Source: Candidatus Saccharimonadota bacterium
Lineage (GTDB): Bacteria > Bacillota_I > Bacilli_A > Mycoplasmatales > Hepatoplasmataceae
Length of the DNA: 32,000 bases
Direction of reading: 5' to 3'
Assembly: GCA_027925225.1 (NCBI GenBank)
Contig: AP027131.1
Span: forward strand, 1 to 32,000
The notes under the pieces are model-generated. The model did no database searches and had not been told where the DNA came from. It was given only the letters and a program-made list of their open reading frames with translations. This document shows, in pieces, positions 3,045-32,000 of the stretch. Positions within the stretch are counted from its first letter, which is position 1; the number at the start of each line of letters is the position of its first letter. A program made the translations under genes and the position numbers.

Positions 3045-3596
3045 ATGGAGAAAGAAGTAAAGGGTATTTTTGAAAAAACAGAATTAGCACATTATGTTTC
3101 TTTACTTTACGAAAAAGAATATAATGAAAAAATTTCTTCAATAAAACTTCAAAAATCAATTTATTTTTTATTTGCATATTGAGCAGGATTTGGCAAAAAA
3201 TTATCAGAAGAAATAAAAGAAAAAAAAGAAAAAGGAAAAATAAATGAAATTTATCTTTTTAAAAATCCTAGATTTCAGGCAAGACAATTTGGACCTGTAG
3301 AGATTGATATTTTTTCAGAATATAATGAAAATATAAAATTATCAGATATCGAAAACATCAATGAATCGATTGAAGATATTAGTAAAAAATTAAAAAAAAT
3401 AAATTCAGAAGCAAAAAATTTTGTCGATTCTTTTTTAACGAAAAATATTTTTAAAATTAGTGATTTTTCACTTGCGATAAGAAGTCATAAAGATTTATCT
3501 TGAAAAAAAGCATGAAAAACAAAAGAAAATAAAAACAAATTTATATCATCAGAAAAAATTGTTGAAGAATATTTTAAAAAATATTTAAATGATTAA
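3045..3596 (+). CDS. Panacea / DUF4065 (SocA/GepA-like) domain protein of 183 aa. Candidate antitoxin.
   Basis: Table-4 translation gives the family's two hallmark blocks, SSIKLQKSIYFLFAYW and RFQARQFGPVEIDIFSEY (compare KLQKLLYF...F.AW.yGPV). RBS AAAAAGGAAATAATATG. Three TGA-Trp codons. Confidence 0.65.
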
Positions 3597-7969: not shown

Positions 7970-8884
7970 ATGGAAAAAGAACAAATTACTGCTACTGAAT
8001 TAGCAAAAATTAATGAAATAAGAAATTTATTTAATCCTTTTATTAAGGATATAAAATTAAATAAATTTAAAATAAAACATCTTCCAAATCATAAAAGTTA
8101 TTCTTTGTTTGGAATAATTTCAGATTATCTTATTAGATATTTATTTTTAAAAAAAATAAAAGAAAATTATTTAGTTGAATCTGATGATTTTATAAATAAA
8201 TTAACAGAAACAACAGAAGAAATAATAGCGTATAAAAGTTTTAATATACTTATAAATTATTCAAGTTATTATGATCCTGATAATATTCAAGAAAAAGAGT
8301 TTTCAAAATTTAAAGAAAGATTAAATGAAGAAATTTCTAATTATCTTTTTAAAAATGAAAAAGATTTATTTGAATTATTTAAAACAATTTATATTTTATC
8401 TATTTCAGATATTATTTTTAGAGTTGGCAAAAAAGAATATATTCTAAATTCTTTAAATAATTTTTTAGAATTTGAGGAATTTTTAAGTAATAAAAATAAT
8501 AAAAAATATGATAATCTTTTTGAAGATTTTAAAAATATTTATGAAAACTTAAATATTTTATTAAAAAATGATTTAAAAATAAAAAATTTTAAACTAAATC
8601 CTTCACTAGGATTAACTGAGTCAAATATATTAATAAAAGCAGATGCCGATCTTATTTTAGAAGATACATTGGTAGAAATAAAAACATCAAAAGATCCAAA
8701 TGTTAAAAATGATTATTTAGAACAGTTATTAATTTATGTGCTTCTGTATTTTAAAAAAACAGGTAAAATAATAAAAGATTTTAAAATAATAAATCCAAGA
8801 GCAACTAATTTAATTACATTTAAAATTAGTTGAGATAAAGATTTATATAACAATTTTAAAAATACTTTAAATAATTTTTTTTAA
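7970..8884 (+). CDS. Hypothetical protein with a RecB/Cas4-like PD-(D/E)xK nuclease core (304 aa).
   Basis: N-terminal ITATEL block and LFGIISDYLIRYL. C-terminal ADADLILEDTLVEIKTSK (D...E-x-K) followed by QLLIYVLLY (QxxxY). One TGA read-through adds 17 codons. Confidence 0.6.
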
Positions 8885-8898
8885 AAAAAGGAATTTTA

Positions 8899-9246
8899 AT
8901 GGAAGCATTATTACAAATATTTTTAAGTTTTTTAGTTTCTATTATTGCAGGAATTATTAGTAATTTTTTATTTTTTTGAATTCAAAAAAATAAAAAAAAA
9001 GATTTTTCTTTAAATAAAAATTTAATAAAATGAAAAAAAGAAATAAAAAACATTAATTCAAAAAATACACTACCAAAATCAATAAAAGAAATAGAAAATA
9101 ATAATTTTAATTTTGAAAAAATAAAACTTTCTAATAATTTATTTTTATTTCAAAAAATTTATAAAAATAAAGAAAAAGATGAATTAAAATATTTTTATTA
9201 TCTTTTATTTATTTTTATTTCAAATAATAAAAATAATGATTTTTAA
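8899..9246 (+). CDS. Small hypothetical membrane-anchored Lys/Asn-rich protein (115 aa).
   Basis: Table-4 ORF: MEALLQIFLSFLVSIIAGIISNFLFFW (N-terminal TM) followed by a K/N-rich tail. RBS AAAAAGGAA. The 3' end overlaps the upstream ATG of pth. Confidence 0.4.
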
Positions 9247-9256
9247 AAAAACAAAA

Positions 9257-9778
9257 ATGAAACTTATAGTAGGACTTGGAAACCCAGGAGAAAGATATAA
9301 AAATTCAAGACATAATTTAGGATTTATGATTATTGATTATTTTTGTAAAGAGAAAGGAATAAAAATTAGTAAAAAGAAATTTAATGGAATATATGAAAGA
9401 ATAAAAGAAAATAATCAAGAATATATTATTTTAAAACCTATGAGTTATATGAATAATTCAGGAGAAGTAGTTTATTTATTTGCAAGTTATTTTGCAATAG
9501 AACCAAAAGACATACTTATAGTTTATGATGATAAGGATATTTTATTTAATAAATATAAAATATCAAATAAAGGATCTTCTGCAGGTCATAATGGAGTAAA
9601 AGATATATTAAAGCATTTGGATAAAGATAATTTTACAAGACTTCGCTGTGGAATTGGTCCGGTAAATAATAAAAGAATAGAAGATTTTGTAATGGATGAT
9701 TTTTTAAAAAAAGAATTAAAAGAATTAGATTTAACAAAATATTTAAATTTAATATATTATTTTTTATACAATGAATAA
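9257..9778 (+). CDS. pth: Peptidyl-tRNA hydrolase.
   Basis: MKLIVGLGNPGERYKNSRHNLGF and GHNGVKDI motifs. An alternative upstream ATG exists at 9236. Confidence 0.92.
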   Translation: MKLIVGLGNPGERYKNSRHNLGFMIIDYFCKEKGIKISKKKFNGIYERIKENNQEYIILKPMSYMNNSGEVVYLFASYFAIEPKDILIVYDDKDILFNKYKISNKGSSAGHNGVKDILKHLDKDNFTRLRCGIGPVNNKRIEDFVMDDFLKKELKELDLTKYLNLIYYFLYNE

Positions 9779-10583
9779 CAATATAAAAAAAATTAAAAGA
9801 TATAAAAATAAAAAAATTCAAAATAAAAAAAAAGACGGATGAGAAGGAATGAAGAAAAGAAGTTTTACAATAAAAAAAACATCTTTTTTGAATATTCCAT
9901 TTGATAAGCAATGAAATATTAAGGAAGATGAGTCTTATTTATACTATTTAAATACATCTTTTTTTATTTTAGAAAAGGATTTTTTAAATTTAGAAAAAAC
10001 AAATTTAAAAGAGTATAAAGGAGATAGTAAATATTGACCAGATTTTTCATTTATTAATAATAAGAATGAGAATCTGTCTTTTGAAATAAAAAATATAACT
10101 CCAGAGATACTTAAAAATTGTAGACACCAGTACTTTGAAAAATTAGGGATAAAAACAGAAAAAGATTTTAAAAAAAAATTTAAATCTATTAACATTTACG
10201 ATAAAGATTTTAAAAAATGTTATTTAAATTCTTATGAAAAACAAAAAAAACAATATGAAAAAGATTATGTAAATAAAAAAATTTCCAAATTATTAAAAAA
10301 AGTGACTAAAAAAATTAATTTAGAAACAGGATATAGCGAAAATAAAGAAAATATTAAAAATTTTAAAAAATACAATAAAAACTATTTAGGTTTTGTTTTT
10401 ACAAATTTTAATTTATTTGATGAAAAATATTTTAAAGAAAAATTAATTTCTATAAATTTAAAATTATTTGAAATTCAAAAAAAATTATTAAATAAATATG
10501 ATGGAATTATTTTATTAGTTTTTAATCTAAAAAAAACAAAAAATTATGAAAATTTAATTTTTATTATTAAAGGAGAAAAGTAA
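9771..10583 (+). CDS. Hypothetical Lys-rich protein (270 aa). Only its last 93 codons appear in the standard-code track.
   Basis: Continuous table-4 frame with three TGA-Trp codons. The ATG at 9771 overlaps the pth stop (ATGAATAA). Alternative ATG at 9849. I recognise no family motif. Confidence 0.5.
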
Positions 10584-12111: not shown

Positions 12112-14310
12112 ATGGAAATCTTAGAGCAAAAAGAAAACAGAGTTTTTTTAAAGGGACAAAACCCCAATTCTCCTAATAATACTTCTAATAAAGAAAGCAA
12201 TCAAGAAAAAAAAGAAATAAACTCTCCTTCAAAAGAAGATAACAAGGATAGCTCTTTTAATTCTAAAAATCCTTCAAATAACAATGAAGCAAAAACACCA
12301 GAAAGTAAAACTTCTGAGCAAAAAGCTGCAACTGATAATACTACCGTAAAACCCACTCCTCAACAAGGTAAACCTAATTCTAATAACCCAAATCAAAAAC
12401 CACCACAAATGCCACCACAAAAACTTCCAAAGAAAAAGACTTCAACACTTGCAAAAATTCTTTGAATAATAGTTATTGTTTTATTAATTTTTCTTATTTT
12501 TGCAATTATTTTTGGTGTAAGAACAGAATATGTTTATTATGATGAATTCTTTAATAATTTAACTTTAGCAACAAATAATGCAACACCAAATGATCCTGTT
12601 TACCTTAATTGAAATATTAATGATGGAGGATATGTGACTGCATCATTTATTTATGATGATATTCAATACGTCACTTATTTTGATGATATACAGCAGGCCA
12701 TTGATTTATCTAATCAATATTTATCTAACTTTGATGTTTTAATAAGTTCTGGTTTATTAGAAGTAGTTCCTCAAAATCCTGAACCTTCATTTTTTGCATA
12801 TCTAATACTTTCATGATTACCTTGATTATTCTTCTTTGTTCTTGCTTGAGTAATTATAAAAATGGTTGTTGATAAACAACAATCAGCAGGAAAAATTCAG
12901 AAAAAATCGCTTACTCCACAAATTTCAACAGTTACATTTAAAGATGTTGAAGGTTATTCGGAAATTAAACAAGAATTATCTGAAATTGTAGATTTTATGA
13001 GAAATTCTGCAAAATATAGTGCAGCAGGGGCAAGAGTGCCTAAAGGTGTTCTTTTATCTGGCCCTCCAGGAACAGGTAAAACATTATTTGCTAAAGCAAT
13101 AGCAGGAGAATCAAAAATTCCTTTCTATTCTATTTCAGGTTCGGATTTTGTTGAAATGTTTGTAGGTGTTGGTGCGTCAAGAGTTAGATCATTATTTGAT
13201 CAAGCAAAAAAAACTGCTCCTTCATTAATATTTATTGATGAATTAGATGCTGTAGGTAGAGTAAGAGGAGCTGGCTCTGGTGGTGGAAACGACGAAAGAG
13301 AACAAACATTAAATCAAATGCTTGTTGAAATGGATGGATTCACTTCAAATACTGGAATAGTAATAATAGCTGCGACAAATAGACCAGATATTTTAGACCC
13401 CGCTTTAAAAAGACCAGGTAGATTTGATAGATCTATTGATATAAGACTTCCTGATATTAATGAAAGAGAAGCAATATTAAAACTTCATGCAAGAAAAGGA
13501 AATAAAAAATTTGCATCTGATATTAATTGAAGAAACATAGCAAGTAGAACACCAGGATTTTCAGGTGCTGAACTTGAAAATGTAATAAATGAATCAGCAA
13601 TACTTTCAGTAAGACTTAATATACCAGTTATTACATTAGATATTATTGATGAATCAATAGATCGTGTAATCGGAGGACCTGCAAAAGTAAATAATGCAAT
13701 GTCTAGAGAAGAAAAAGAACTAATAGCACATCATGAGGCTGGACATGCTTTAATAGGACTTAAATTAGAACATGCTGAGAAAGTTCAAAAAATATCAATT
13801 GTTCCTAGAGGGCAAGCTGGTGGATATGTATTAATGACTCCTAAAAAAGAAAAAATTGTACAAACAAAAGCTGAATTAATTGCAAAAATTATTTCCTATA
13901 TGGGAGGAAGAGCATCAGAAGAAATTTTCTTTGGAAAAGAAAATGTAACAACAGGTGCATATTCTGATATTCAAGAAGCAACTATTATTGCAAGAAGAAT
14001 GATTGCTGAATTTGGTATGTCTGAAAAATTAGGACCAGTACAATATGACAAACCAGAAGGAATGTATTATTTAAGAAGTTCAATTGATAGAACTCATTCA
14101 GAAAAAGTTGCTTATGAAATTGACCTTGAAGTGAAAACTTTAATAGAAACTTCATATAAAAATGCTCACACTATAATAAACAATAATAAATCTATGATTA
14201 AATTATTTGCAAAAGCTCTTTTAATAAAAGAAGTTTTAAATAAAGAAGAAATAGATTATATTTATAAACATAAAAAATTAACTGAACAAATGCAAGAAAT
14301 GGAAAAATAA
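12112..14310 (+). CDS. ftsH: ATP-dependent zinc metalloprotease FtsH (732 aa) with a low-complexity N-terminal extension of about 116 aa. Fuses four track ORFs.
   Basis: [51 protein letters not shown], and zinc site HEAGHAL. All segments are in frame 1 and joined by TGA. Confidence 0.96.
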
Positions 14311-14357: not shown

Positions 14358-14451
14358 ATAAATAAAATTATATTTTTAATTATTTATAATTAGTTTAATG
14401 TGAATTTTAATAATATGAATAATAATAATAATTTTATCCATAATTTCAATT

Positions 14452-17400
14452 ATGGCATTTCTACTTTTTATAATTAAATTTAAAAAAAATGCTTTAATTT
14501 ATAAATCAATATTTACTTCTTTATTTAAAAGTGTTACTTCAGTTATTATAATAATTGTTTTTTATTCAGTTACTTTTTCTCTTATAGGAACATTTTATTC
14601 TTATTCAGAACAAATAGAAGAATCTCTTTATCCTTTAATTATTGATTCTAAACCCAACCAAGTAAATTATGCTGGAATTACATTAAACAGTTTAGAAGAT
14701 GATAATGATAATTATAATAATTTATTTGAGTTTTCAATAAGTAGATTAAATTCTGATTTTGATATAGGTGATGTAATTTTAGAAACAGATGAAGATCTGA
14801 TAAATGAATATGATTTATTTTTTGAAAGTGAATATTCTATATCAAATTTTTGAGGAAATTATGGTTCTCTTTATTTTCAAAATATTGAAAATTTTATAGC
14901 TTCATTAGTTTTTGAAACTACTTTTTCTAATTTTAATGACGGGTTAATAGATGATGAAATAGATGATAATGGCTCAAATTATGAAATAGTTTATAATTTT
15001 TTCCCGCATTACATATATCAACCTGTTGTATCCGACTCTTATAATGAAATATATTTTTTAATGGGTTATAATCAATTTCAAACAAAATGATCACCACTCT
15101 TTAGATATAGTGGGAAAAATAATAATTATGTAATTGATAACATAATAATTACAGAATATGCGCCAGGTTATGATGATGAAACAATAGAAAATGAATTAAC
15201 ACAAGTAGGAGATTCATATGATGAAAATGGCACTAAAAATTCTCCATTCAAAATTATTATTCAAGAGGAATATCTTGATGCAAATGATATTGATTTATCA
15301 AAAGAAGGAGAAAATATTTTAAAAATAAATGATTATTATTTTGAAATAATGGCTTCAGCTTGTTTTTCAAATGTAATTGCTCCGGTTTATTCTTCAACTA
15401 ATTTTATTACAGATTTTTCTAGTCAATCTACCTTTTTAATGAATCCTGAATCACTTGTTAAAATAACAAATGGTAAATTAGAATATTCATTTGACTTTGG
15501 ATTTACAGATTTTTATGATAAAGCTGACAATATTTATTATTATCGTGACATGGGATTAGATGAAGATAATCATTCTGAAATATATGATAGAACATATGAA
15601 TTAGAAGATTATATTTATGATTCAACAAAAACAAATAATATCCCAATAGTATCTGATAGATCAATTAATTTAGATGATGTTGGAATGATAACTGGCGAAA
15701 ATTATTCTTTAAATTCATATAGAACAAATGGAGTACTGGATGAACTTAATAATGAAACAATATTTGCTAATGTATTTATGTACATTTTTTTAATAATAAT
15801 AGTTTTTGTGCTTATTCTTTTAATTCAAAAAAGAGTTAAAGATTATAGTAAACAATTTGGAACATTAAAAGCATTGGGTCTTAATAGGCATGAAGCTTCA
15901 GTGTCTTTTATTATGTATCCGCTTGTAATAATTTTGGTTGCTGGATTTATTGCGCTGTTACTTTCAATACCGCTTCAAATGTACACGCTTGGTTTGTTTC
16001 ATAGTTTTTTTTCATTGCCTGGATTAACATTTGGTTTTTCATTTTGAAGTGTCTTTTATGTGGTATTTTTGCCTGCATTGATTTTATTTGGAATAGCAGT
16101 AATAATTTCTAATTATATTTTAAGAAAATCACCAATTGATCTATTATCAAATAAAATAAATGATGATCCAAGTGCTATTGTTGTTTATTCGGGAAAATTA
16201 GTTCCTAAAAATGCATCATTTTCTTATGCTTATAAATTTAAGGGTCTTTCCCGAGCTTGGGGTAAATCATTGCTTTTACTTTTTGCTGTTTTTATAGCAA
16301 CAGCACTTACTTCTCTTTCTTTTGCAGCAAGAAATATAATTACAAATACGCAAGAACTTGCAGCTGAGGGATTTAATTTTGAATATTATTCTTCTATTAA
16401 TGAGACAAAATATGAATATGATTTTTATGATTTAAATGAACAAGAAGGTGATTATAAATCTAATCAAGATCCACTTTATAATGATGAATTACTTACTTTT
16501 AATGAGATTAATCAGATTGAAAGTGATATTTCAAGTAATCCCGACATAGTTTATCAAGATTTAGGCGAAGTTATTTTAAATCCAATAAATGGAACAAATG
16601 GCATAGAAACTGAAGTTGTTTCAAATAATGTAGTTAATTATTATATTCCAAAAGAAGCTTTATTAAATTTTTGTATTGTAATTGATTTATTTGAAGAATC
16701 CAATTATTATTCTTTATTAACAACACCATGAGAAGGAAGCGAGTATTCAGCTATTGATTTTTTAAATATTAGCAATCTATTTTCAATTAATATAGATTTA
16801 AGTTTAAATAAAATGGGAAGCGAATTAACATTTGATGATGTTCTTAATGAAATTATAAACGGTGCTGATGTAAGTTCTTATTTGGATTATGCCCCAGATA
16901 TTGTGTTTAAAGACATTTACTATGATTCTTTAAATCAAGCATTAGCAACTGGAGGCAATGTTAAATTTGAGTATATAGATGAAGAAGATAGTGAAAACAG
17001 ATTTAATATTGATTACGATAGTGTAAGATTAAATATTTTTAAATATTCTGATTCAATAAATAAGGTTTATGAATTACCACAAGAGTCATATCAAAAATTG
17101 GTAGAACAAGAAGATTTGGTTGATCAATATGGAGAATTAGATTATATTCCTGTGGTTGTTGATAGCTTTACATTTAATTATTTAAGAGTTCTTGCTCCAG
17201 GTATATTTACTTATGATGAATCAGATCAAAGTTATAACACTGATGAATTATTTTTAACAGATAAAGATAATGAAATTTATAGAGAACCAATTTCAGTAAA
17301 AGTTTTTCCTTATCAATCTAATCTTGCAGTTGGATTTACAACAACAGAAAAATTAATTCAAAATTATTCTGGCTGAAATTTTCTAACTAATATGAATAAA

Positions 17401-18030
17401 ATTTATTATCAAAATATTTATTGAACTAGTTATTTAACGCCAACGCAAGAAGAAACATTCAAACCACCTCAAACTTTGACAATTGTTCCAATTAATCAAT
17501 ATGCAAGTGAAAACAATGGTGAAACCTTAACCTTTGAAGAGTATATTGATAATTCAAAATCATTAGAGACTGCACCTCTTTCAAAAAAATCAATTTCGAA
17601 TCAAACTGACTTTCTTTATGAACTTGTTAATGGATTTTTATTGTTACTTTCTCTTTTTTCATTAATGGTTGCACTTATACTTACAGTAATTGCAATAAAA
17701 GATGTAAATGATAAATCAAAAAAAGAAGTTGCTATGTTAAAAGCAATTGGTTATTCAAATTGAAAATCAACTTCTCTTGTTCTTACTCCTTATATAATAA
17801 TAATAATAATTGGATTTATATTATCTATTCCTTTTGCATTTTTAATGTTATTTGGAATTTCAAATGTTTTAAATAATTTAACGGGAACAAGTTTTACTTT
17901 TGCTGTTAATTCTATACAATGGATTTATATTACAATTTTTATAGTTGGCCTACTTCTTATTTTATTAATGATGGCTTACAATGCTTTCAGGAAAACAAAT
18001 CCATTAGATGCAATCAAAGAGGAAAATTAA
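14452..18030 (+). CDS. Giant ABC transporter permease with two FtsX-type TM modules and two large extracytoplasmic domains (1192 aa). Fuses six track ORFs.
   Basis: All six fragments are in frame 1 and separated only by TGA. FtsX-like blocks KALGLNRHEASVSFIMYPLVIILVAGFI and MLKAIGYSNWKSTSLVLTPYIIIIIIGF. Alternative in-frame ATG at 14398. Confidence 0.85.
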
Positions 18031-18031
18031 T

Positions 18032-19186
18032 ATGAGTAAAAAAAATGAAAAAACTTTAGATAAAGAGAAGAAAAAGTTAATTAAAAATGAAAAAAACGCA
18101 TCTAAAAAAAACAAAAAAGTTCTTAAAAAAGAAAAAGCTAATTTAAAAAAAGAAGAAAAAAAAACAGAAAAAAAAAATGATAAATTAATTAAAAAACAAA
18201 AAAGAGCATCAAGAAATGATTCAGAATTACTTAATTCTTATTCTAAAGAAGAATTAAGTAATTCATTTACAAAAGCATTAAGTGAAAAACACTTTTTAAC
18301 TCATAAAAGTAAAGTAAGATTTATCAAAAAATATAGAAAATATTTAATAAATCAAAAAAAGAAAATTTTTAAAGGAGAAATAAAAAGATCGGCAAATCCA
18401 ATAGAAAAAAAGGAACTAAGAAAAAAATATAAAAACAGTTTAATTTATGGTAAAACACAAAACAGTAAAGATAATATAATTGATTTAATAAATATAAATA
18501 AGTTATATACTTCAAAAGAAACTTATGAACATGTTTTAAGAGATATAAACCTTGTAATCAAAAAGGGAGAAATAGTAATAATATTAGGTGCTTCAGGTTC
18601 AGGTAAAACAACACTTTTAAATGTTCTTTCAGGGCTTACAGATGCAACATCAGGTGATGTTATTGTAAATAACACAAATTTATTCTATCTTTCCGAAAGC
18701 AAAAAAACAAAGTTTAGAGCTGACAATTTGTCTTTTGTTTTTCAATCTTATAATTTAATTCCAACTCTTACTGTATCTGAAAATGTAAAAGTGGGTTACA
18801 ACTTAAGAAGACAAAACAAAGAAGGAAAAAATGTAAAAGAAATCCTAAAAATTTTAGGAATTGAAAAACAAGCGAATAAATATCCTTTTCAATTATCAGG
18901 AGGACAAAACCAAAGAGTTTCAATTGGGAGAGCGCTTGCAAAAAATCCAGAAATACTTTTTGCCGATGAGCCTACTGGAGCATTAGATGAATTTCATGGG
19001 AAAGAAGCATTAAAATTATTATTAGAAATTAACAAAAAATATGGTACAACTTTAATTATTGTTACTCATAATCCTAATTTTTCAGTTGTTGCTGATAGAG
19101 TAATAAGAGTTGTAGATGGAGAGGTTTTAAAAATTGATAGACATGGAAGCAAAACAACAAATGTTGACTCAATCAAATGAGTTTAA
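18032..19186 (+). CDS. ABC transporter ATP-binding protein (MacB/LolD-like NBD) with a Lys-rich N-terminal extension of about 165 aa.
   Basis: Walker A GASGSGKTTLLN, signature LSGGQNQRVSIGRAL, Walker B ILFADEPTGALD. ATG 18032 follows AGAGGAAAA. A terminal TGA read-through adds W-V. Confidence 0.9.
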
Positions 19187-20678: not shown

Positions 20679-21551
20679 ATGAAACAAAATTATTTATATA
20701 AAACAAAAATAAATTATTTAGATACACAAAAAGCAATGTCAATGATAGAAGAAGAAATTCTTGACATTTTAAAGAATAAATTAAATGTTCTTAAAATAAG
20801 AACCCCTAAATATTTTAATGAGTTAGATTTTGGTCTTGAAAGAAGCGAATATAAAAATTCAAGAAATATAAATTTTGATTCTATTTCTGATTATAAAATA
20901 TATAAACTTTATAACGATTATAGTGATTGATTTTATAATAAATTGATTAATTTAAATATAAAAAATAATAATGGTATTTTTTCGCAGTGTAATTATATTG
21001 TTCGAGATGAGCATGAATTTGGTTTAAAAACTTTTGAAAGAAATGAAATAATAATATATTTTAAATATGAAAATATTGAATTAGCAAAAAATAAAATTCT
21101 TGAATTACTTTTATTATTTTTTGATGAATTTAGAAATTTAAAAATAAAACTTAATCAAACATTTAAAGAATTAGAAGATGTTTATCCAAAATTTGTAAAA
21201 ATTTTGGATTTAAACAAAGAGGAAAAAGTTAAATTGAAAAAAAATTCAATAGAAGATATTAAAAGTTATTATTTGCAAAGAAATATGTGAAATATATTTA
21301 CATATGATTTATCAGAAAAAAATAAAAGATATTCTTTAAGTATTTATATAGATAAACTAAAAAAAGTTGCGAACATAATAGAAGCAAGGTATTTTGAAGA
21401 TTTAGATGTAAATTATTTTAAAATAAATATGAATTTAGATCTTATTTATATGACTTTTCTTGAAAAATTATTTATTTATGAAATTCAAGAAAATATTAAT
21501 AATGCTAATATTCAAAAAATATTAGCAGAAAATAAAATAAATAATATTTAA
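20679..21551 (+). CDS. Hypothetical protein of 290 aa with weak collinear resemblance to aspartate-ammonia ligase AsnA (class II aaRS-like fold). Catalytic motifs are not conserved.
   Basis: Blocks NKLNVLKIRTPKY, YSDWFYNKL and GIFSQCNYIVRDEHE line up with my recollection of E. coli AsnA RLGLIEVQAPIL, LAKWKRQTL and GLYTHMKALRPDEDR. There is no GGGIGQSR-like block. Two TGA read-throughs. Confidence 0.4.
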
Positions 21552-22741: not shown

Positions 22742-24703
22742 ATGAAAAAACGCTTAAACAATTTTTTTATAATTCAAATTTTATCAGCAGTCATTTTGGC
22801 ATTGTTGGTTATAGTTTTTGTATTATTATTTTTTGAAGAAGACTTTTCAGCAGTTATTTATGGAGTCTTCTTTGGAGCGACAATACTAATTTTTATATTA
22901 GTATTTTTTTATTTACTTTATTATTTTCAAAAAAATAGAAGACTTGTGAAAAGTTTTTTTTCACTTTTTCCAGATGTTATTGACAGTTTTCATTTTAATT
23001 TAAATAGTGGTTATATTATTTATGATGAAAGAAATAGAATTGTTTTTATTTCTAAATGATTATATGAAAATGGATTTAAGATATTTTTAGGTAAAAATAT
23101 AAATTTGTTTTATTCTCAAAGAAAATTTTTTGATAATGATGATACAATTTTTCATTTTAAAAATTCAACATATTTAGTAAAAAAATATAGTAAAACAAAT
23201 ATTTTAATTTTTAAGGATGAAACAAATCTTTCATTTTCAAATCAAATTATTAAAAAAAGAGATCTTGCTTTAATTGTTATAGATAAACATTTTTCAAATA
23301 AGGTAATTGATAAAGCAAAAATAAATTTAAATATAAATGAATACTTAGAAAAATGATCTGAAAAAAATAGTGGAATTTTACGTACTGAATCTACATTTGA
23401 TAGTTCTACACTTATTATTTTGAAATGAAATAAAATAAATACAGAAATAATACAAAAAAATTTAATGAATAAACTTATTGAGATTTTAGGAAATAATGTT
23501 CAAAATGCTTCTATTTCAATTGGTATTGCTCATGGTAATTTAGAGCTGGGTGATTTATTTAATAATGCAAAAGAAGCAACAGAACATGCTAAATCTAGAG
23601 GCGGAAATCAAGTAGTTATTTCTGATGAAAAAAATAGACTTTTAGTTGTAGGGGAATCAACGGTAAAAGATCAAGATAATTCTAAAGTAGAGTTAAAATT
23701 TTTTAATGATAATTTTACAAATCAACTAATTCATTTAAATAGAATTTTTATTACTGCACATATAAACGCTGATATTGATGCATTAGCTGCTAGTGTTGGA
23801 CTTGCAAGATTTGTAAAAGAATATAATAAAAATGTTTCAATTATTTTAGATGAATTTGATGGATCGTCTTCAAAAATATTTAATAATATTTCTCAACACA
23901 CTAAATCATTATTTATAAAAATAGATGATTTTAAAGAAAAAGTAAATAAAAAAATAGGAATAATAATTCTTGATACTTCAGATGACTCAAGAGTGCAAGC
24001 ATTTGATCTTTTGGAAAGCGTCGAAGTAGAAAATAGATTTATTATTGATCATCATAGAATAGGAATATCTAAGATAAAAACAATAAAAGAAAATGAATAT
24101 ATAGATACAGCTTCTTCTTCAACATCAGAATTAATTACTGAACTTTTTCTTTTAAAAGAAGTTGAAGGAAAAGATTACAAACATCTTTCAAAAGAAGAAG
24201 CATCGCTTTTAATTCTTGGAATTTATTTAGATACAAATAATTTAAAAAGAAATACATCTCCTCGTACATTTGAATCACTAACATATTTAACAAATGAAGG
24301 AGGAGAAATTAATAACTTAATAAATTATACAAAGAGCGATTTTTTAAATACTCCTTTAATTGTTTCTGCGCTTGAAAATATTGATAAAATTACTTCTGAA
24401 ATTGTTTATACTTATATTCCAGAAATGCAGATTGTTGATGAATCAACGCTTTCATTTCTTGCAAATATGCTTCTAGATTATGAAGGAATAAAGGCATCAT
24501 TTATACTTGCTAAAATAAATAAAAATACTTATAAAATGTCTGCTAGATCTATTGATAAAATTAACGTTCAAAATATTTGTGAAAAGTTAGGAGGCGGTGG
24601 ACATTTTAATGTTGCTGCCGTTACTTTTAATAAAGATGACATGAAATTTAAAAATTTAAGAAAAAAAATTAGAGATACAATTATTGAATCGGTTGCACTT
24701 TAG
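22742..24703 (+). CDS. gdpP: GdpP-type cyclic-di-AMP phosphodiesterase with 2 TM, a PAS-like region, a degenerate GGDEF, and DHH/DHHA1 domains (653 aa). Fuses three track ORFs.
   Basis: Two N-terminal TM helices. DHH motifs AHINADIDALA, ILDTSD and IIDHHR, plus DHHA1 GGGGH. Position after rpsR as in Bacillus yybT. Confidence 0.85.
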
Positions 24704-28367: not shown

Positions 28368-28811
28368 ATGAAAGTAATATCTAAAAACAAAAGAGCAAAA
28401 TATGACTATGTTTTAAAAGATACTTATCTTGCAGGAATTTCCTTAATGGGATCTGAAGTAAAATCAATACGTGCGGGTGATGTTTCTTTAAATGAATCTT
28501 ATATTCTTGTTGATAAAAACAGAAATCTCAAACTAATAAATATGGATGTTAAAAAATATTCTTATTCTTTAGATTTTTCTAATTATGATTCTAAAAGAAC
28601 AAGACAACTTTTACTTACAAAAAATGAAATTAAAAAAATATCTGAAAAAGTAAAACTAGAAAATTTAGTTATCATTCCTACTGTAATTGGTTTATCTCAT
28701 AAAGGACTTGTAAAATTAGAAATTAGACTAGGTAAACCAAGAAAAAAATATGATAAAAGAGAATATGAAAAAGAAAAGGAATTTAAAAAAATAAGAAAAA
28801 ATTATTTATAA
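28368..28811 (+). CDS. smpB: SsrA-binding protein SmpB.
   Basis: NKRAKYDYVLKDTYLAGISLMGSEVKSIR N-terminus and a basic C-terminal tail. Lies immediately upstream of ssrA. Confidence 0.93.
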   Translation: MKVISKNKRAKYDYVLKDTYLAGISLMGSEVKSIRAGDVSLNESYILVDKNRNLKLINMDVKKYSYSLDFSNYDSKRTRQLLLTKNEIKKISEKVKLENLVIIPTVIGLSHKGLVKLEIRLGKPRKKYDKREYEKEKEFKKIRKNYL

Positions 28812-28910
28812 ATATAAACATTAGATGAAACTATAAGTATCTTTATTTAAAAAAATAATGATAAAATATAGTAAGACAGTAGATTTTTATTTATACTATT
28901 ACTTCTTAAT

Positions 28911-29254
28911 GGGGGTGTAGTGGATTTGACAATTTAGTGATTGTTTTAAATGCAGTGGTCTGATAAACCTTAATATCAAACCTTAAAAATAATCGGAAAC
29001 GATGATCAACCTGTTGATCTAGCATTAATGCAAGAAGAAGTTAATTCTTCTTATGCATTTGCATAAGTAGACAACATTTCTGATAAATATTACTCTTGGT
29101 ATTTATTGGGAAAGTTTTACAAGAGAAAATAGTAGGCATACTATAAATGTAAAAACCTTCCAAATTAAAAAAATTATTTAAAATGGATAAACTGTAGATT
29201 TTTAAAATTGGGTTGCTATTTTGGACTCGGGTTCGATTCCCGACACCTCCACCA
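28911..29254 (+). ncRNA. ssrA: Transfer-messenger RNA (tmRNA, ssrA).
   Basis: 5' GGGGGUG pairs with 3' CACCUCC followed by ACCA. T-arm GGGTTCGATTCCC. Internal tag ORF at 28995-29066. Confidence 0.92.
28995..29066 (+). other. tmRNA tag reading frame encoding (A)GNDDQPVDLALMQEEVNSSYAFA, then stop.
   Basis: The upstream context AAAAAUAAUC-GGA-AAC-GAU-GAU closely parallels E. coli AAAAAUAGUC-GCA-AAC-GAC-GAA. The tag ends in hydrophobic YAFA then TAA, like other Mollicutes tags ending in FAFA. Confidence 0.7.
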
Positions 29255-29275
29255 TTTAATTTATATGCGATTGTT

Positions 29276-30985
29276 ATGTTTTACTTTTTGCTAATCCTTT
29301 ATAATATTTTGTTTGCAGTTGCGATTTGTATAACTTATTTTTTAATAAAGGAATATAAAAGAGTAAAGGGTGACAATCGCCTTCTCTTATTTTTTTATTT
29401 TTTATTAGGACTCTTATTTTTTATTTATGAGTTTTTTATTGCATATTATGAAACAGATTTAACTTTTTTTCTTTCAATAATAGCAATTTATTCTTTCTTT
29501 TTTGCAATTTATAGTGATAGAAAATCAGTTTTTTTTATTATTCCACTTGCAACTGTAGGAACATTTTTTAATTTTTATAATCAGGATGTTGAATTTTTAA
29601 ATTCTTTTACATTTGCTATATTTAATTTTTTAATTATTATTTTTATTTCATGACTTGTCACATATTCAGGAATTGAATATTTTAAAAATAATAATAATTC
29701 TAAAAATGTAATATTAGCTTCCTTAATTTATTTAATATTCTTTTTTAGCTTCCTTGCAGTTTATGAAAAAATATTTTTAACATTAATAGCAAAAGATATT
29801 ATTTTGCTTTTCATTTATGAAATTTTAATTTTTTCTTTTTTTGTATTTATAGTTTTTTATTTATTTAAAGGTGTTGATCTACTTTATTTAAATTATTTTA
29901 ATTTAAGCAAAAATCTTTTTGATAAAAAACAATCTTATTATAAAATGGCACTTTGAAGAAAAAAATTGAATGAAAAAATATTTACTGAAAAAATAACATT
30001 TGGAGCATTAATTTTTTTAAAAATAAATTATAAAAATTTAGAAAAAGAAACACTTGAAAAATTTTTAGAAGATTTTAATAATGAATTAAATAAAAAATAT
30101 GAAAATGTTTTTTATTTTAAATCAAGTAATCTTTATTATTCTTTTTTTATTCCAATGAAAGAAAGTGATATAAATTTAGAAATTTTTTATCAAAATAATT
30201 CTTCAAAAATAAGAAAAAAAGATTTTTTTTCATCTTTAAAAAATATATTAACTAATAATTTATATAAAAATATTTCAAAAAAAATTTATATTTCTCTTTA
30301 TGGTGTAGACTCATCAAATATTAATGATTTAATTAAAAATAATGAATATTTAATTTTTGAAGATATAGAATTTGATAAAAAATATCCTATTCAAATTTTC
30401 AATTATAGAATTTTCAAAAACTCATTACTTGAAAGATTTGAGCTTTATACATATATGAGCAAATATGAAAAATTAGATTTAAATTATTATTTATATCTTT
30501 CAGAAAAAAAAATATACCTTTATAATGCAATTCTTACAGAAAATAATAATAAAATCTATTTAAATTCACTTGAATCCAAGAAAAGCAAAAAAGAATACAC
30601 ATATTTATTAAGATATGCTGCATTAAATGCTTTAAAAAATTTTAAAAAAGACGATTTTGATTATTTTATTTTAGATTATCCAATAAATTATTTAATAAAT
30701 AATGATATTGATATTACAATATTTGCTAAAAAAATAAGTAATATGTTTAATTATTCTTTAGAAAAATTATTAATTGGTTTTAGAATAGAAGATTTTAAAA
30801 AAACTTGAGAAATAAAAAAATTATCAGAAATTTTAATTAAATTAGAAGAGTGTAAAATAAAATATGCAATTTTAGATGAAAAAGAATATAAAAATATTCA
30901 CTCAAAATATTTAAATCCAATTTTAAAAATAGAAGGAAATAAATATAAAATAGCTAATAAAATATTTGATTTAAGTTTTATATAG
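29276..30985 (+). CDS. Polytopic membrane protein (about 7 TM) with a cytoplasmic region resembling a degenerate GGDEF followed by a degenerate, truncated EAL-like domain (569 aa).
   Basis: Fuses 29213-29653 (true ATG 29276, downstream of the tmRNA) with 29966-30808 and a tail via TGA. GGDEF-like pattern: DKKQSYYKMAL, FGALIFLKINYKNL, FYFKSSNLYYSFFIP (GGDEF replaced by SSNLY), IYISLYGVD. EAL-like pattern: LDLNYYLYLSEKKIYLYNAILTE, FILDYPINYL, LIGFRIED, KIKYAILDEKEY, ILKIEGNKY. Confidence 0.5.
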
Positions 30986-31035
30986 ATTTGATTTAATTTT
31001 TTTATAAATCTATAATTAAAATAGTATTAAGGAAA

Positions 31036-31608
31036 ATGACGGATACACAATTTTGGATAATATTAGGTGTTACGATAATTTTATTTGTGATTACATGAAT
31101 ATTTTTATTTAATCCTTTTCGTAAATTTAAAGCAATTTTTAAAAAGAAAACATTAGCAGAAGAAAAAATTGCTATTATTCAAAATATTATAATTGCACTT
31201 GATAATTTATCAAATATTAAAAGAGGAGCAACAATAATTTTAGATGATATTGATGAAACTAATGATTATATTGCAGATTATGAATATTTAAATTCTGAAG
31301 TAACATCAAATTTAATAACCAATATTTTTGAAGGTGTAAATACTCCGCTTCATGATGGAGCAATAGTAATTAATAATGGCAAAATGAAAAGTGCATCTGC
31401 TTTTATTTCAAAACTTTCAAATAAAAAAGTTCCTTCTCAATTTGGAACAAGACATAGATCGGCTCTAGGACTTAGTGAGGTTACGGGTGCTGTAATTATT
31501 GTTCTTTCAGAAGAAACAAAAAATATTCACATTTTTTATAAAGGGAAATTTGAAAAAATAAATAAAAGTAATCTTTTTGAAAAAATATATGAGAAATGAG
31601 TAAAATAA
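31036..31608 (+). CDS. Diadenylate cyclase (DAC domain) with a single N-terminal TM helix, CdaM-like (190 aa).
   Basis: TM FWIILGVTIILFVITWIFLF. DAC motifs RGATIIL, LHDGAIVI and GTRHRSALGLSE. Two TGA read-throughs. Confidence 0.85.
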
Positions 31609-31623
31609 AAATTAAGGAGAATT

Positions 31624-32000
31624 ATGGCTACAAATCATATAGAGGCAAAAAATGACGAAATAAATAAAATTGTTTTAATGGCAGGAGATCCATTAAGAGT
31701 AAAATATTATGCAGATAAGTTTTTAAAAAATAAAAAACTAGTTAGCAAAGCTCGTGGAATACTTGCCTATAGTGGTAAAGTAAACGAATTAGAAATTACA
31801 CTTATAGGACATGGGATGGGACTTGATTCAATAGGTATTTATGCTTTTGAATTATTTAAATTTTATAATGTTGATTTAATTATGAGATTAGGGTCTTGTG
31901 GTTCATATAATAAAAATATTAATCTTTATGATTTGATAGTCGCTAAAAGTGCTTATTCTTTTTCAAATTATGGTAAAACATATAAATATTCTAATAAAAC
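31624..32000 (+). CDS. deoD: Purine nucleoside phosphorylase, DeoD type. 3' end runs off the window.
   Basis: MATNHIEAKNDEINKIVLMAGDPLRVKYYADKFL...GHGMGLDSIGIY...RLGSCG, collinear with E. coli DeoD. RBS AAGGAGAATTATG. Confidence 0.88.
   Translation, partial: MATNHIEAKNDEINKIVLMAGDPLRVKYYADKFLKNKKLVSKARGILAYSGKVNELEITLIGHGMGLDSIGIYAFELFKFYNVDLIMRLGSCGSYNKNINLYDLIVAKSAYSFSNYGKTYKYSNK

Follow-up and report, generated by a model that had tools for sequence, protein, structure and literature searches.

A candidate membrane pseudoenzyme of GGDEF-EAL descent encoded next to a CdaM-type diadenylate cyclase in Hepatoplasmataceae-like mollicutes

The gene, its family and the selection acting on it

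The first 32,000 nucleotides (nt) of contig AP027131.1 (assembly GCA_027925225.1, forward strand), the stretch that we call the window, carry a gene for a hypothetical protein of 569 amino acids (aa), HPAVJP_0290, placed between the transfer-messenger RNA (tmRNA) gene ssrA and the gene of a diadenylate cyclase. An original prediction, made from the letters of the DNA, described this protein as seven transmembrane (TM) helices followed by a degenerate GGDEF-like and a truncated EAL-like part, and proposed it as a regulator or partner of the cyclase and so as part of cyclic di-AMP (c-di-AMP) control. Mollicutes are generally assumed to lack cyclic di-GMP (c-di-GMP) signalling. We describe here the gene and its family, the predicted fold of the protein and the state of its active-site positions, and weigh what it may do. 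The positions of the gene, of its parts and of its neighbours are collected in Table 1.

Table 1. Features at the locus and the evidence for each, with positions counted from the first letter of the window
Feature	Positions	Strand	Evidence
gdpP, c-di-AMP phosphodiesterase: TM helices, degenerate GGDEF_GdpP, DHH and DHHA1 domains	22742..24703	+	domain scan
ssrA (tmRNA gene), part of a conserved block	28911..29254	+	ARAGORN
Whole gene HPAVJP_0290, putative 7TM / GGDEF-like / EAL-like pseudoenzyme, 569 aa	29276..30985	+	code-4 translation, AlphaFold2 (AF2), Foldseek
Membrane domain, aa 1-197, seven TM helices, N-out / C-in	29276..29866	+	AF2 helices, hydropathy, charge distribution, family alignment
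Juxtamembrane signalling helix and wide turn, aa 198-240 (…VDLLYLNYFNLSKNLFDKKQSYYKMALWRKKL…)	29867..29995	+	dN/dS, alignment, hhalign register
Predicted GGDEF-fold domain, aa 241-375	29996..30400	+	AF2 topology, Foldseek, motif table
Inter-domain helix, aa 376-395	30401..30460	+	AF2 helix; P0001 366-383 = open reading frame 377-394
Predicted shortened EAL-fold domain, aa 396-569	30461..30982	+	Pfam EAL in the family, local HMM alignments, motif table, Foldseek
Spacer, 50 nt, AT-rich, with AAGGAAA ribosome-binding-like site	30986..31035	+	sequence inspection, hairpin and promoter scans
Putative cdaM-type diadenylate cyclase gene, 190 aa, one N-terminal TM helix and DAC domain	31036..31608	+	Pfam, NCBIfam, hydropathy

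Read with genetic code 4, the gene lies in a single open frame (29198-30985) in which the ATG at 29276, 21 nt past the 3' end of ssrA, gives the 569-aa protein. Codons 126, 227 and 511 are in-frame TGA triplets read as Trp, and translation with table 11 breaks the gene region into four fragments at the TGA codons. The open reading frame (ORF) of 569 aa following ssrA is therefore real under code 4, as first described, and ARAGORN places the tmRNA gene where it was expected. The protein is 100% identical to the NCBI entry 'hypothetical protein HPAVJP_0290' of Candidatus Hepatoplasma vulgare; this organism is a gut symbiont of woodlice, from an uncultured lineage. The NCBI entry starts at a TTG (29309), 11 codons past the ATG, and has 558 aa (P0001). 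We prefer the ATG: the orthologue P0002, 78% identical, starts there too, and the added residues make the first TM helix as complete as in the other members.

An exhaustive phmmer search over 1.84 billion cluster representatives returned 29 matches, the query and 28 others, at 23-45% identity; nearly all span the full length (494-617 aa), and two fall short of it. Only two other relatives, 78% and 46% identical, came from a word-indexed homologue search, and the same kind of search run with the family profile gave nothing new, as AT-rich words swamp the index. The alignment of 30 members shows conservation over the whole length of the protein. All relatives that could be placed, some of them by a genome scan with a 15-sequence subset of the alignment, belong to Hepatoplasmataceae-like, crustacean-associated mollicutes, among them Ca. 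Tyloplasma litorale, Mycoplasma sp. Bg1 and Bg2, the 'SnakePit' Mycoplasmataceae metagenome-assembled genome and contigs from invertebrate sequencing runs, and the family appears to be confined to this group. It is new: previously undescribed, without a Pfam or NCBIfam model and annotated as 'hypothetical', and the Hepatoplasmataceae genome paper mentions neither the protein nor c-di-AMP.

Compared with the 78%-identical orthologue, the ratio of nonsynonymous to synonymous substitution rates (dN/dS) is 0.25 over the whole gene, with 0.24 in the TM domain, 0.02 in the linker (aa 200-240), 0.23 in the GGDEF-like and 0.38 in the EAL-like domain. The neighbouring genes rnr, smpB and cdaM gave 0.18, 0.14 and 0.05. 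The gene is under purifying selection and is not a pseudogene.

Predicted fold and active-site positions

The AF2 model built on the 30-sequence family alignment reached a mean predicted local distance difference test (pLDDT) score of 82.8, against 49 when three sequences were used. In the model the seventh TM helix (TM7) continues as a long cytoplasmic helix, followed by a short, poorly defined turn and a helix alpha0 ahead of the two cytoplasmic domains. When the model was compared with the PDB by Foldseek, the first nine matches were all tandem GGDEF-EAL proteins, each aligned over about 350-400 columns: PA0575 (5m3c, E = 3.0e-8), MorA (4rnf, 3.2e-8, and a further match at 5e-7), LapD (2.5e-6 to 2.9e-5, with 6pwj at 2.5e-6 and 6pwk at 7.9e-6) and DosP (4.9e-6 and 3.9e-5). 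Lower in the ranking came BlrP1 and the EAL domains of FimX and YkuI (4fou, 7lkq, 4f48, 2bas; TM-score, TMt, 0.45-0.49 over 164-203 columns), and isolated GGDEF domains matched as well (4urq, 4zmm, 6eib; TMt 0.52-0.57, probability 0.96-0.98). The proposed kinship with GGDEF and EAL folds is thus found at the level of structure, with E values down to 3e-8. An hhalign comparison with a DosP-type GGDEF-EAL alignment, a narrow reference set, was collinear over 284 columns and gave the register proposed from the letters. Single-sequence Pfam and NCBIfam scans of the 569-aa protein found neither GGDEF nor EAL even at E<=10, and Pfam gave no HAMP match in it. Active-site positions were tabulated over 35 family sequences from the AF2 strands, the hhalign register and local hidden Markov model (HMM) alignments.

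The membrane domain has the seven TM helices predicted at the outset, which AF2 and the hydropathy profile both show. Loops rich in Lys and Arg lie on alternating sides and, by the positive-inside rule, give a topology with the N-terminus outside and the C-terminus inside. This topology puts every conserved loop motif of the alignment (KEYxR, DxR and KNN) on the side of the cytoplasm; the loops outside the cell are short and variable. A Pfam scan of the TM domain assigned no family. A PgpH-type 7TMR-HD module (PF07698) was considered and set aside: the window protein scored E = 5.4 and a single member of 30 reached E<=1 (0.025), a match that does not recur.

The helix and turn that follow (aa 198-240) are the most conserved part of the protein, with near-invariant columns in the family alignment, and the strongest block of that alignment, IExIYxNFxxLETFSxKDDxSYYKxSLAQ, stands directly past TM7. 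Between the window protein and its 78%-identical orthologue the linker is 95% identical, with the dN/dS of 0.02 given above. In the hhalign register the juxtamembrane turn lines up with DxLTGLxNRR, the entry motif of a true GGDEF domain. Such extreme constraint on the joint between TM7 and the GGDEF-like domain, at the very position of DxLTGLxNRR, suggests that selection on the helix and turn preserves a coupling of the membrane domain to the cytoplasmic domains.

In the model the next domain (aa ~241-375) runs in the order beta1-alpha-beta2-beta3-alpha-alpha-beta4-alpha-beta5, which agrees with the palm-like topology of GGDEF domains. The hairpin beta2-turn-beta3 reads FYFK-SSNL-YYSFFIP where a true domain has xxaR-xGGDEF-axxxP. 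Its flanks are kept among the 35 sequences, with K/R282 in 34, Y288 in 31, F291 in 34 and P293 in 19 of them. The turn itself, SSNL(Y) here and [AVS][ST]xxY in the family, has neither a Gly nor an acidic residue in any of the 35 members. Topology and hairpin register together uphold the earlier description of GGDEF-like blocks with the signature replaced. Lys249 stands at the position of the metal-binding Asp of beta1, where 11 of the 35 members have Asp, and the RxxD inhibitory site, which would stand five residues ahead of the signature, is not present: the corresponding residues are KKYEN and the family columns show no R..D pattern. Between beta3 and beta4 lies a family-specific polar motif, NNxxxxRxxxD (aa 307-316, window ~30194-30223), whose N and D are near-invariant over 30 members and which is without counterpart in true GGDEF domains. 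Judged from its conservation, this motif could be a site where a partner or a ligand binds.

The last part of the AF2 model is a beta/alpha domain (399-559) in which the strands YFILD, LLIGF and KYAILD stand in for the svN, lEitE and lDD strands of EAL domains. Local HMM alignments anchor LIGF on the ExxE strand and AILD on the DD strand, which is the register first proposed for the EAL-like blocks. EAL (PF00563) is also the sole Pfam family that matches members recurrently, in five of 30 full-length proteins and in nine of the 30 C-terminal domains when these are searched alone; other families were singletons. The best isolated C-terminal domain matched at E = 7.8e-6, and the best full-length match aligned residues 471-559 of P0024 to profile positions 60-151 (23.1 bits, E = 5.6e-5). 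These recurrent matches lend support, independent of the fold model, to a homology with EAL domains that would be a distant one.

The EAL-like domain ends just past ILKIE, the equivalent of the strand with the catalytic-site Lys, and the EGVE and QG units that would follow are missing family-wide. Past the DD-equivalent there are 35 residues here (30-62 in the family, median 48) versus ~100 in DosP. The protein had been thought to end before the second half of an EAL barrel; the truncation is real, but its extent was overstated, the loss amounting to about the last third. The equivalent of the EAL-motif strand, IYYPxIxF, has no conserved Glu among the 35 sequences. The Asn strand ends in Asp467 (Y in 13, N in seven and F in five family sequences), at a place where the register is uncertain by a few residues. 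Gly501 is at the position of the first Glu of ExxE (G in 26 of 35, E in three), Leu533-Asp534 form the DD pair (second position N in 17 and D in 12), and at the position of the EAL Lys most members have I or L and only the three Hepatoplasma sequences have K. Aromatic and polar residues are kept at the strand ends of the half-barrel (IYYP, xY[PS], [ND]P, P[DE][FY]). The relic N, E, D and K residues scattered over a few members would fit the slow decay of a once-genuine EAL domain.

The residues for making or for hydrolysing c-di-GMP are absent across the family. That the catalytic residues are lost, and that the protein is accordingly not an enzyme, had been read from a single sequence; the motif table extends the loss to the whole family, with scattered relics only, and both the GGDEF-fold and the EAL-fold domain appear to be dead.

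Gene neighbourhood and the adjacent cyclase

The cyclase gene that begins 50 nt downstream has the single TM helix (aa 6-24) and the DAC (diadenylate cyclase) domain that were predicted for it (Pfam DAC, E = 1.4e-30), with the DGA (HDGAIVI) and RHR (GTRHRSA) motifs. Among NCBIfam models it matches CdaA at 9.5e-36 and CdaM at 6.8e-32, both under the cut-offs (CdaM 110.6 vs 225 bits). As its CdaM score is under the cut-off and its CdaA score is slightly higher, the enzyme is, judged by its sequence, a divergent member of the CdaM class. CdaM (MPN244), which gives the class its pattern of a single, N-terminal TM helix and a DAC domain, lacks a sensor domain, and its authors call for further work on the control of its activity; c-di-AMP is essential in Mycoplasma pneumoniae and no cdaM mutant could be obtained (PMC5508000). 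A second paper agrees that the control of CdaM is not understood (PMC13022847). Across the clade the juxtamembrane helix of the cyclase, EEKIxxIQxI, is well conserved and its TM helix is not.

The c-di-AMP phosphodiesterase gene gdpP, with the degenerate GGDEF domain noted for it at the start, lies on the same strand 4.6 kb upstream. The GGDEF-like domain of the 569-aa protein was considered as a copy of that degenerate domain and shows no similarity to it. No YbbR/CdaR domain was found in the 569-aa protein or in the unassigned ORFs of the window, in keeping with the earlier remark that no CdaR-like gene is present.

Fifteen distinct loci were compared (the window, L001-L008 and L011-L016). 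The block ssrA - family gene - cdaM - deoD is present in 15/15, with the cyclase gene 24-67 nt past the family gene and the tmRNA gene ~14-75 nt upstream of it; the family gene and the cyclase gene are thus adjacent throughout, which was the co-conservation looked for. Most loci also share gdpP-dnaB-(secG)-rnr-smpB before ssrA and mgtE and a phospholipase D (PLD) gene after deoD. Only Bg1 and Bg2 show a breakpoint, and it lies upstream of ssrA; smpB and rnr are no longer upstream in these two. When metagenomes were scanned for members of the family lying apart from a DAC gene, one further distinct locus turned up, and it had this block too. In L006, L008 and L011-L015, deoD is followed by a gene for an MgtE magnesium transporter (MgtE_N, CBS and MgtE domains) and one for a phospholipase-D-family protein. 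In relatives gdpP, cdaM and mgtE thus fall within ~12 kb; the window ends before mgtE. CBS-domain proteins are c-di-AMP targets in Firmicutes.

The ~14-75 nt between ssrA and the family gene leave no room for a separate promoter, and for this reason the mRNA of the family gene may be made as a continuation of the tmRNA precursor past its 3' end and be freed when that end of the tmRNA is processed. The sole terminator-like hairpin in 28700-32000 is at 29367-29383 (+), AGGGTGACAATCGCCTT with a T-run behind it. This hairpin falls within the family gene at codons ~31-36, 113 nt past the tmRNA 3' end, and could be an ssrA terminator or an attenuator; one such hairpin against 0.4 expected is not significant. 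Between the family gene and cdaM no terminator-like hairpin is present in the window, and a promoter scan is uninformative in DNA as AT-rich as this (29 matches against 31.9 expected, with one match in the 50-nt spacer).

Elsewhere the window begins with dnaA and dnaN (83-2711), its large genes are all on the + strand and the cumulative GC skew rises steadily; on these grounds we place its start at the chromosomal replication origin region. FtsH (12112-14310) carries an N-terminal extension of ~110 aa of low complexity (Asn, Pro, Lys, Ser, Gln) before its TM helix, and no other part of the window is as GC-rich as its gene body (0.33 vs ~0.2 elsewhere). At 14398-19186 lie genes for a 1210-aa FtsX-type permease, which has two FtsX stretches and a large extracytoplasmic region where Asp, Glu, Asn and Tyr abound, and, after it, for an ABC ATPase that starts with a Lys-rich low-complexity tail of ~170 residues. 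Five ORFs of 115-304 aa (3045-3596, 7970-8884, 8899-9246, 9771-10583 and 20679-21551) matched no Pfam family at E<=0.01; the first of them is an exception in having a weak DUF7020 match. The 304-aa ORF has a D…E-x-K-like stretch (ADADLILEDTLVEIK) reminiscent of PD-(D/E)xK nucleases.

Function, rival readings and meaning

We hold it to be on balance probable that the protein is a catalytically dead membrane signalling pseudoenzyme, descended from a tandem GGDEF-EAL protein, with CdaM as a candidate partner. By analogy with LapD, FimX, CsrD, YdiV and staphylococcal GdpS it would probably act through conformational change and protein-protein contacts, with no chemistry: the conserved helix would carry the state of the membrane domain to the pseudoenzyme domains in the cytoplasm, and these would engage the partner. 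Were CdaM this partner, the protein would be a functional analogue of CdaR, and the contact could involve its cytoplasmic domains and the well-conserved juxtamembrane helix of CdaM. CdaM is the leading candidate for the target by gene position and a shared theme, grounds on which we remain doubtful. That a former c-di-GMP protein has been rewired, in a mollicute lineage without c-di-GMP, into a membrane sensor that sets CdaM activity is in our view somewhat unlikely. In a bolder variant the half-barrel would have turned into a c-di-AMP-binding site and would give direct product feedback.

The architecture is closest to that of LapD and of CsrD-type membrane-bound degenerate GGDEF-EAL proteins. 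LapD of Pseudomonas and Vibrio likewise has a membrane anchor and a signalling helix ahead of two inactive domains, GGDEF and EAL, and serves for conformational relay and protein contact rather than catalysis. It differs in having two TM helices, periplasmic and HAMP domains and a complete EAL barrel that binds c-di-GMP, whereas the family protein has seven TM helices, short outside loops, no HAMP domain, a barrel without its last two units and replaced nucleotide-contact motifs. CsrD of E. coli, also anchored in the membrane and a pseudoenzyme in both domains, does not make, break or bind c-di-GMP, and so is a precedent for proteins of this kind keeping a function after the loss of all nucleotide chemistry; unlike the protein described here it has two TM helices and full-length domains recognised by Pfam and acts on the decay of small RNA (sRNA), and no sequence similarity between the two was detected here. 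FimX and YkuI, degenerate EAL receptors of stand-alone or tandem make-up whose EAL domains are the best single-domain structural matches, are soluble, with complete barrels that retain c-di-GMP binding. GdpS of Staphylococcus is also a vestigial c-di-GMP-type membrane protein in a lineage without c-di-GMP and has a nucleotide-independent function, but it has a 5TMR-LYT membrane domain, a recognisable GGDEF domain, no EAL domain and no known link to a diadenylate cyclase. CdaR, the analogy drawn in the original prediction, is a membrane protein encoded beside a membrane-bound diadenylate cyclase; it differs in being encoded downstream of cdaA, in its one TM helix and extracytoplasmic YbbR domains of unrelated fold, and in that its interaction with CdaA is proven. 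What sets the protein apart is the unrecognised 7-TM module, a GGDEF domain past sequence recognition, the truncated EAL domain, the loss of every c-di-GMP-contact motif to other residues, the mollicute host and the fixed position ahead of cdaM.

Several results weigh against the reading as a pseudoenzyme of GGDEF-EAL descent that partners CdaM. On the side of descent, none of the 30 members matches the Pfam GGDEF profile (PF00990) at E<=10, as full-length protein or as isolated domain; of the two kinds of similarity to that family that were looked for, the structural one was found by Foldseek and the profile one was not. The GGDEF assignment is drawn from the predicted fold and from the position ahead of the EAL domain and is correspondingly provisional. 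All PF00563 matches are under the gathering score (31.3 bits) and the window protein itself has none, profile searches against PDB sequences with the whole protein and with each domain gave nothing relevant, and the hhalign P values are weak (0.079 overall, 0.15 for the EAL part, and 0.0026 over 33 columns around SIYG…ELI). On the side of the partner, ssrA and deoD are as tightly linked to the family gene as cdaM is, so that its adjacency to cdaM is part of a collinear block of ~15 kb and has low specificity. In a mirror-tree comparison the family correlated with CdaM at r = 0.71, against 0.69 for deoD, 0.80 for rnr and 0.79 for smpB, and no CdaM-specific co-evolution emerges against these controls. 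The TM helix of CdaM shows little conservation over the clade (0.43 mean consensus identity vs 0.70 for the DAC domain); a conserved TM helix as the sign of a membrane interface was accordingly rejected, this helix being the least conserved functional part of CdaM. These results do not refute an interaction; of the original proposal of a regulator or partner of the cyclase, the pseudoenzyme architecture stands, and the functional link finds no specific backing.

Some of these points speak for a rival reading of the protein as a conserved membrane protein outside nucleotide signalling, such as a transporter, membrane organiser or host-interaction factor, in which the GGDEF-EAL ancestry survives as a leftover cytoplasmic scaffold and the position beside cdaM is inherited gene order. 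The ~15-kb block is collinear across the clade, the co-evolution comparison and the CdaM TM helix give no sign of a dedicated pair, and the TM domain matches no known sensor family. We nevertheless think such a role unlikely. Constraint is strongest (dN/dS 0.02) where a helix joins the membrane domain to the GGDEF-like domain, a pattern typical of proteins that transmit signals, and selection is purifying in both pseudoenzyme domains. The outside loops are short and variable, and the conserved motifs of the TM domain face the cytoplasm. Quite unlikely, in turn, is a receptor for cyclic dinucleotides, in which the degenerate EAL domain, the GGDEF domain or both would bind c-di-AMP, pApA or ATP rather than c-di-GMP and the protein would work at the membrane as an effector or a feedback sensor, as LapD and FimX do for c-di-GMP, with CdaM, GdpP or the neighbouring MgtE as its output. 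None of the motifs by which EAL receptors hold c-di-GMP (the ExL-R, N and D positions) is kept, and the barrel lacks a third of its fold; from these losses binding of c-di-GMP by the EAL-like domain seems unlikely; to our knowledge no EAL or GGDEF domain binds c-di-AMP, which counts further against a receptor. In its favour are the conserved strand-end residues of the half-barrel and the NNxxxxRxxxD motif, the presence of LapD and FimX, both c-di-GMP receptors, among the closest structural matches, and the place of the gene amid the c-di-AMP genes gdpP, cdaM and, in relatives, mgtE.

The tmRNA gene, ~14-75 nt upstream in all 15 loci including Bg1 and Bg2, which have no upstream smpB and rnr, invites another comparison with E. 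coli CsrD, a TM degenerate GGDEF-EAL protein that controls sRNA decay without c-di-GMP: the family protein could have an RNA-linked role in the maturation or turnover of tmRNA or with RNase R. The linkage to cdaM and deoD is equally invariant, however, and position does not discriminate; Pfam scans found no RNA-binding domain or motif, so that the likeness is one of architecture, and we consider this role very unlikely. That the protein is still an enzyme through non-canonical residues, a GdpP/YybT-like ATPase or a phosphodiesterase of another nucleotide, is most improbable. The degenerate GGDEF domain of GdpP/YybT does keep a residual ATPase activity, and the cytoplasmic domains here are under purifying selection, but no acidic or metal-binding residue is conserved at either active-site position, part of the EAL barrel is missing and no similarity to the GGDEF domain of GdpP is seen.

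The hosts are uncultured symbionts and the family is narrow, and the function of a signalling pseudoenzyme acting on CdaM is one that we infer. If it is true, the CdaM class would have its first known regulator, and two cyclic-dinucleotide systems would be seen cross-wired through a pseudoenzyme. The conserved membrane pseudoenzyme encoded directly upstream offers a concrete candidate for the control of CdaM that is testable in E. coli, which makes no c-di-AMP. For the mycoplasma-like lineage itself, the family would mean that a GGDEF-EAL ancestry survives under selection there, and that an EAL barrel may lose a third of its fold and still serve some function.

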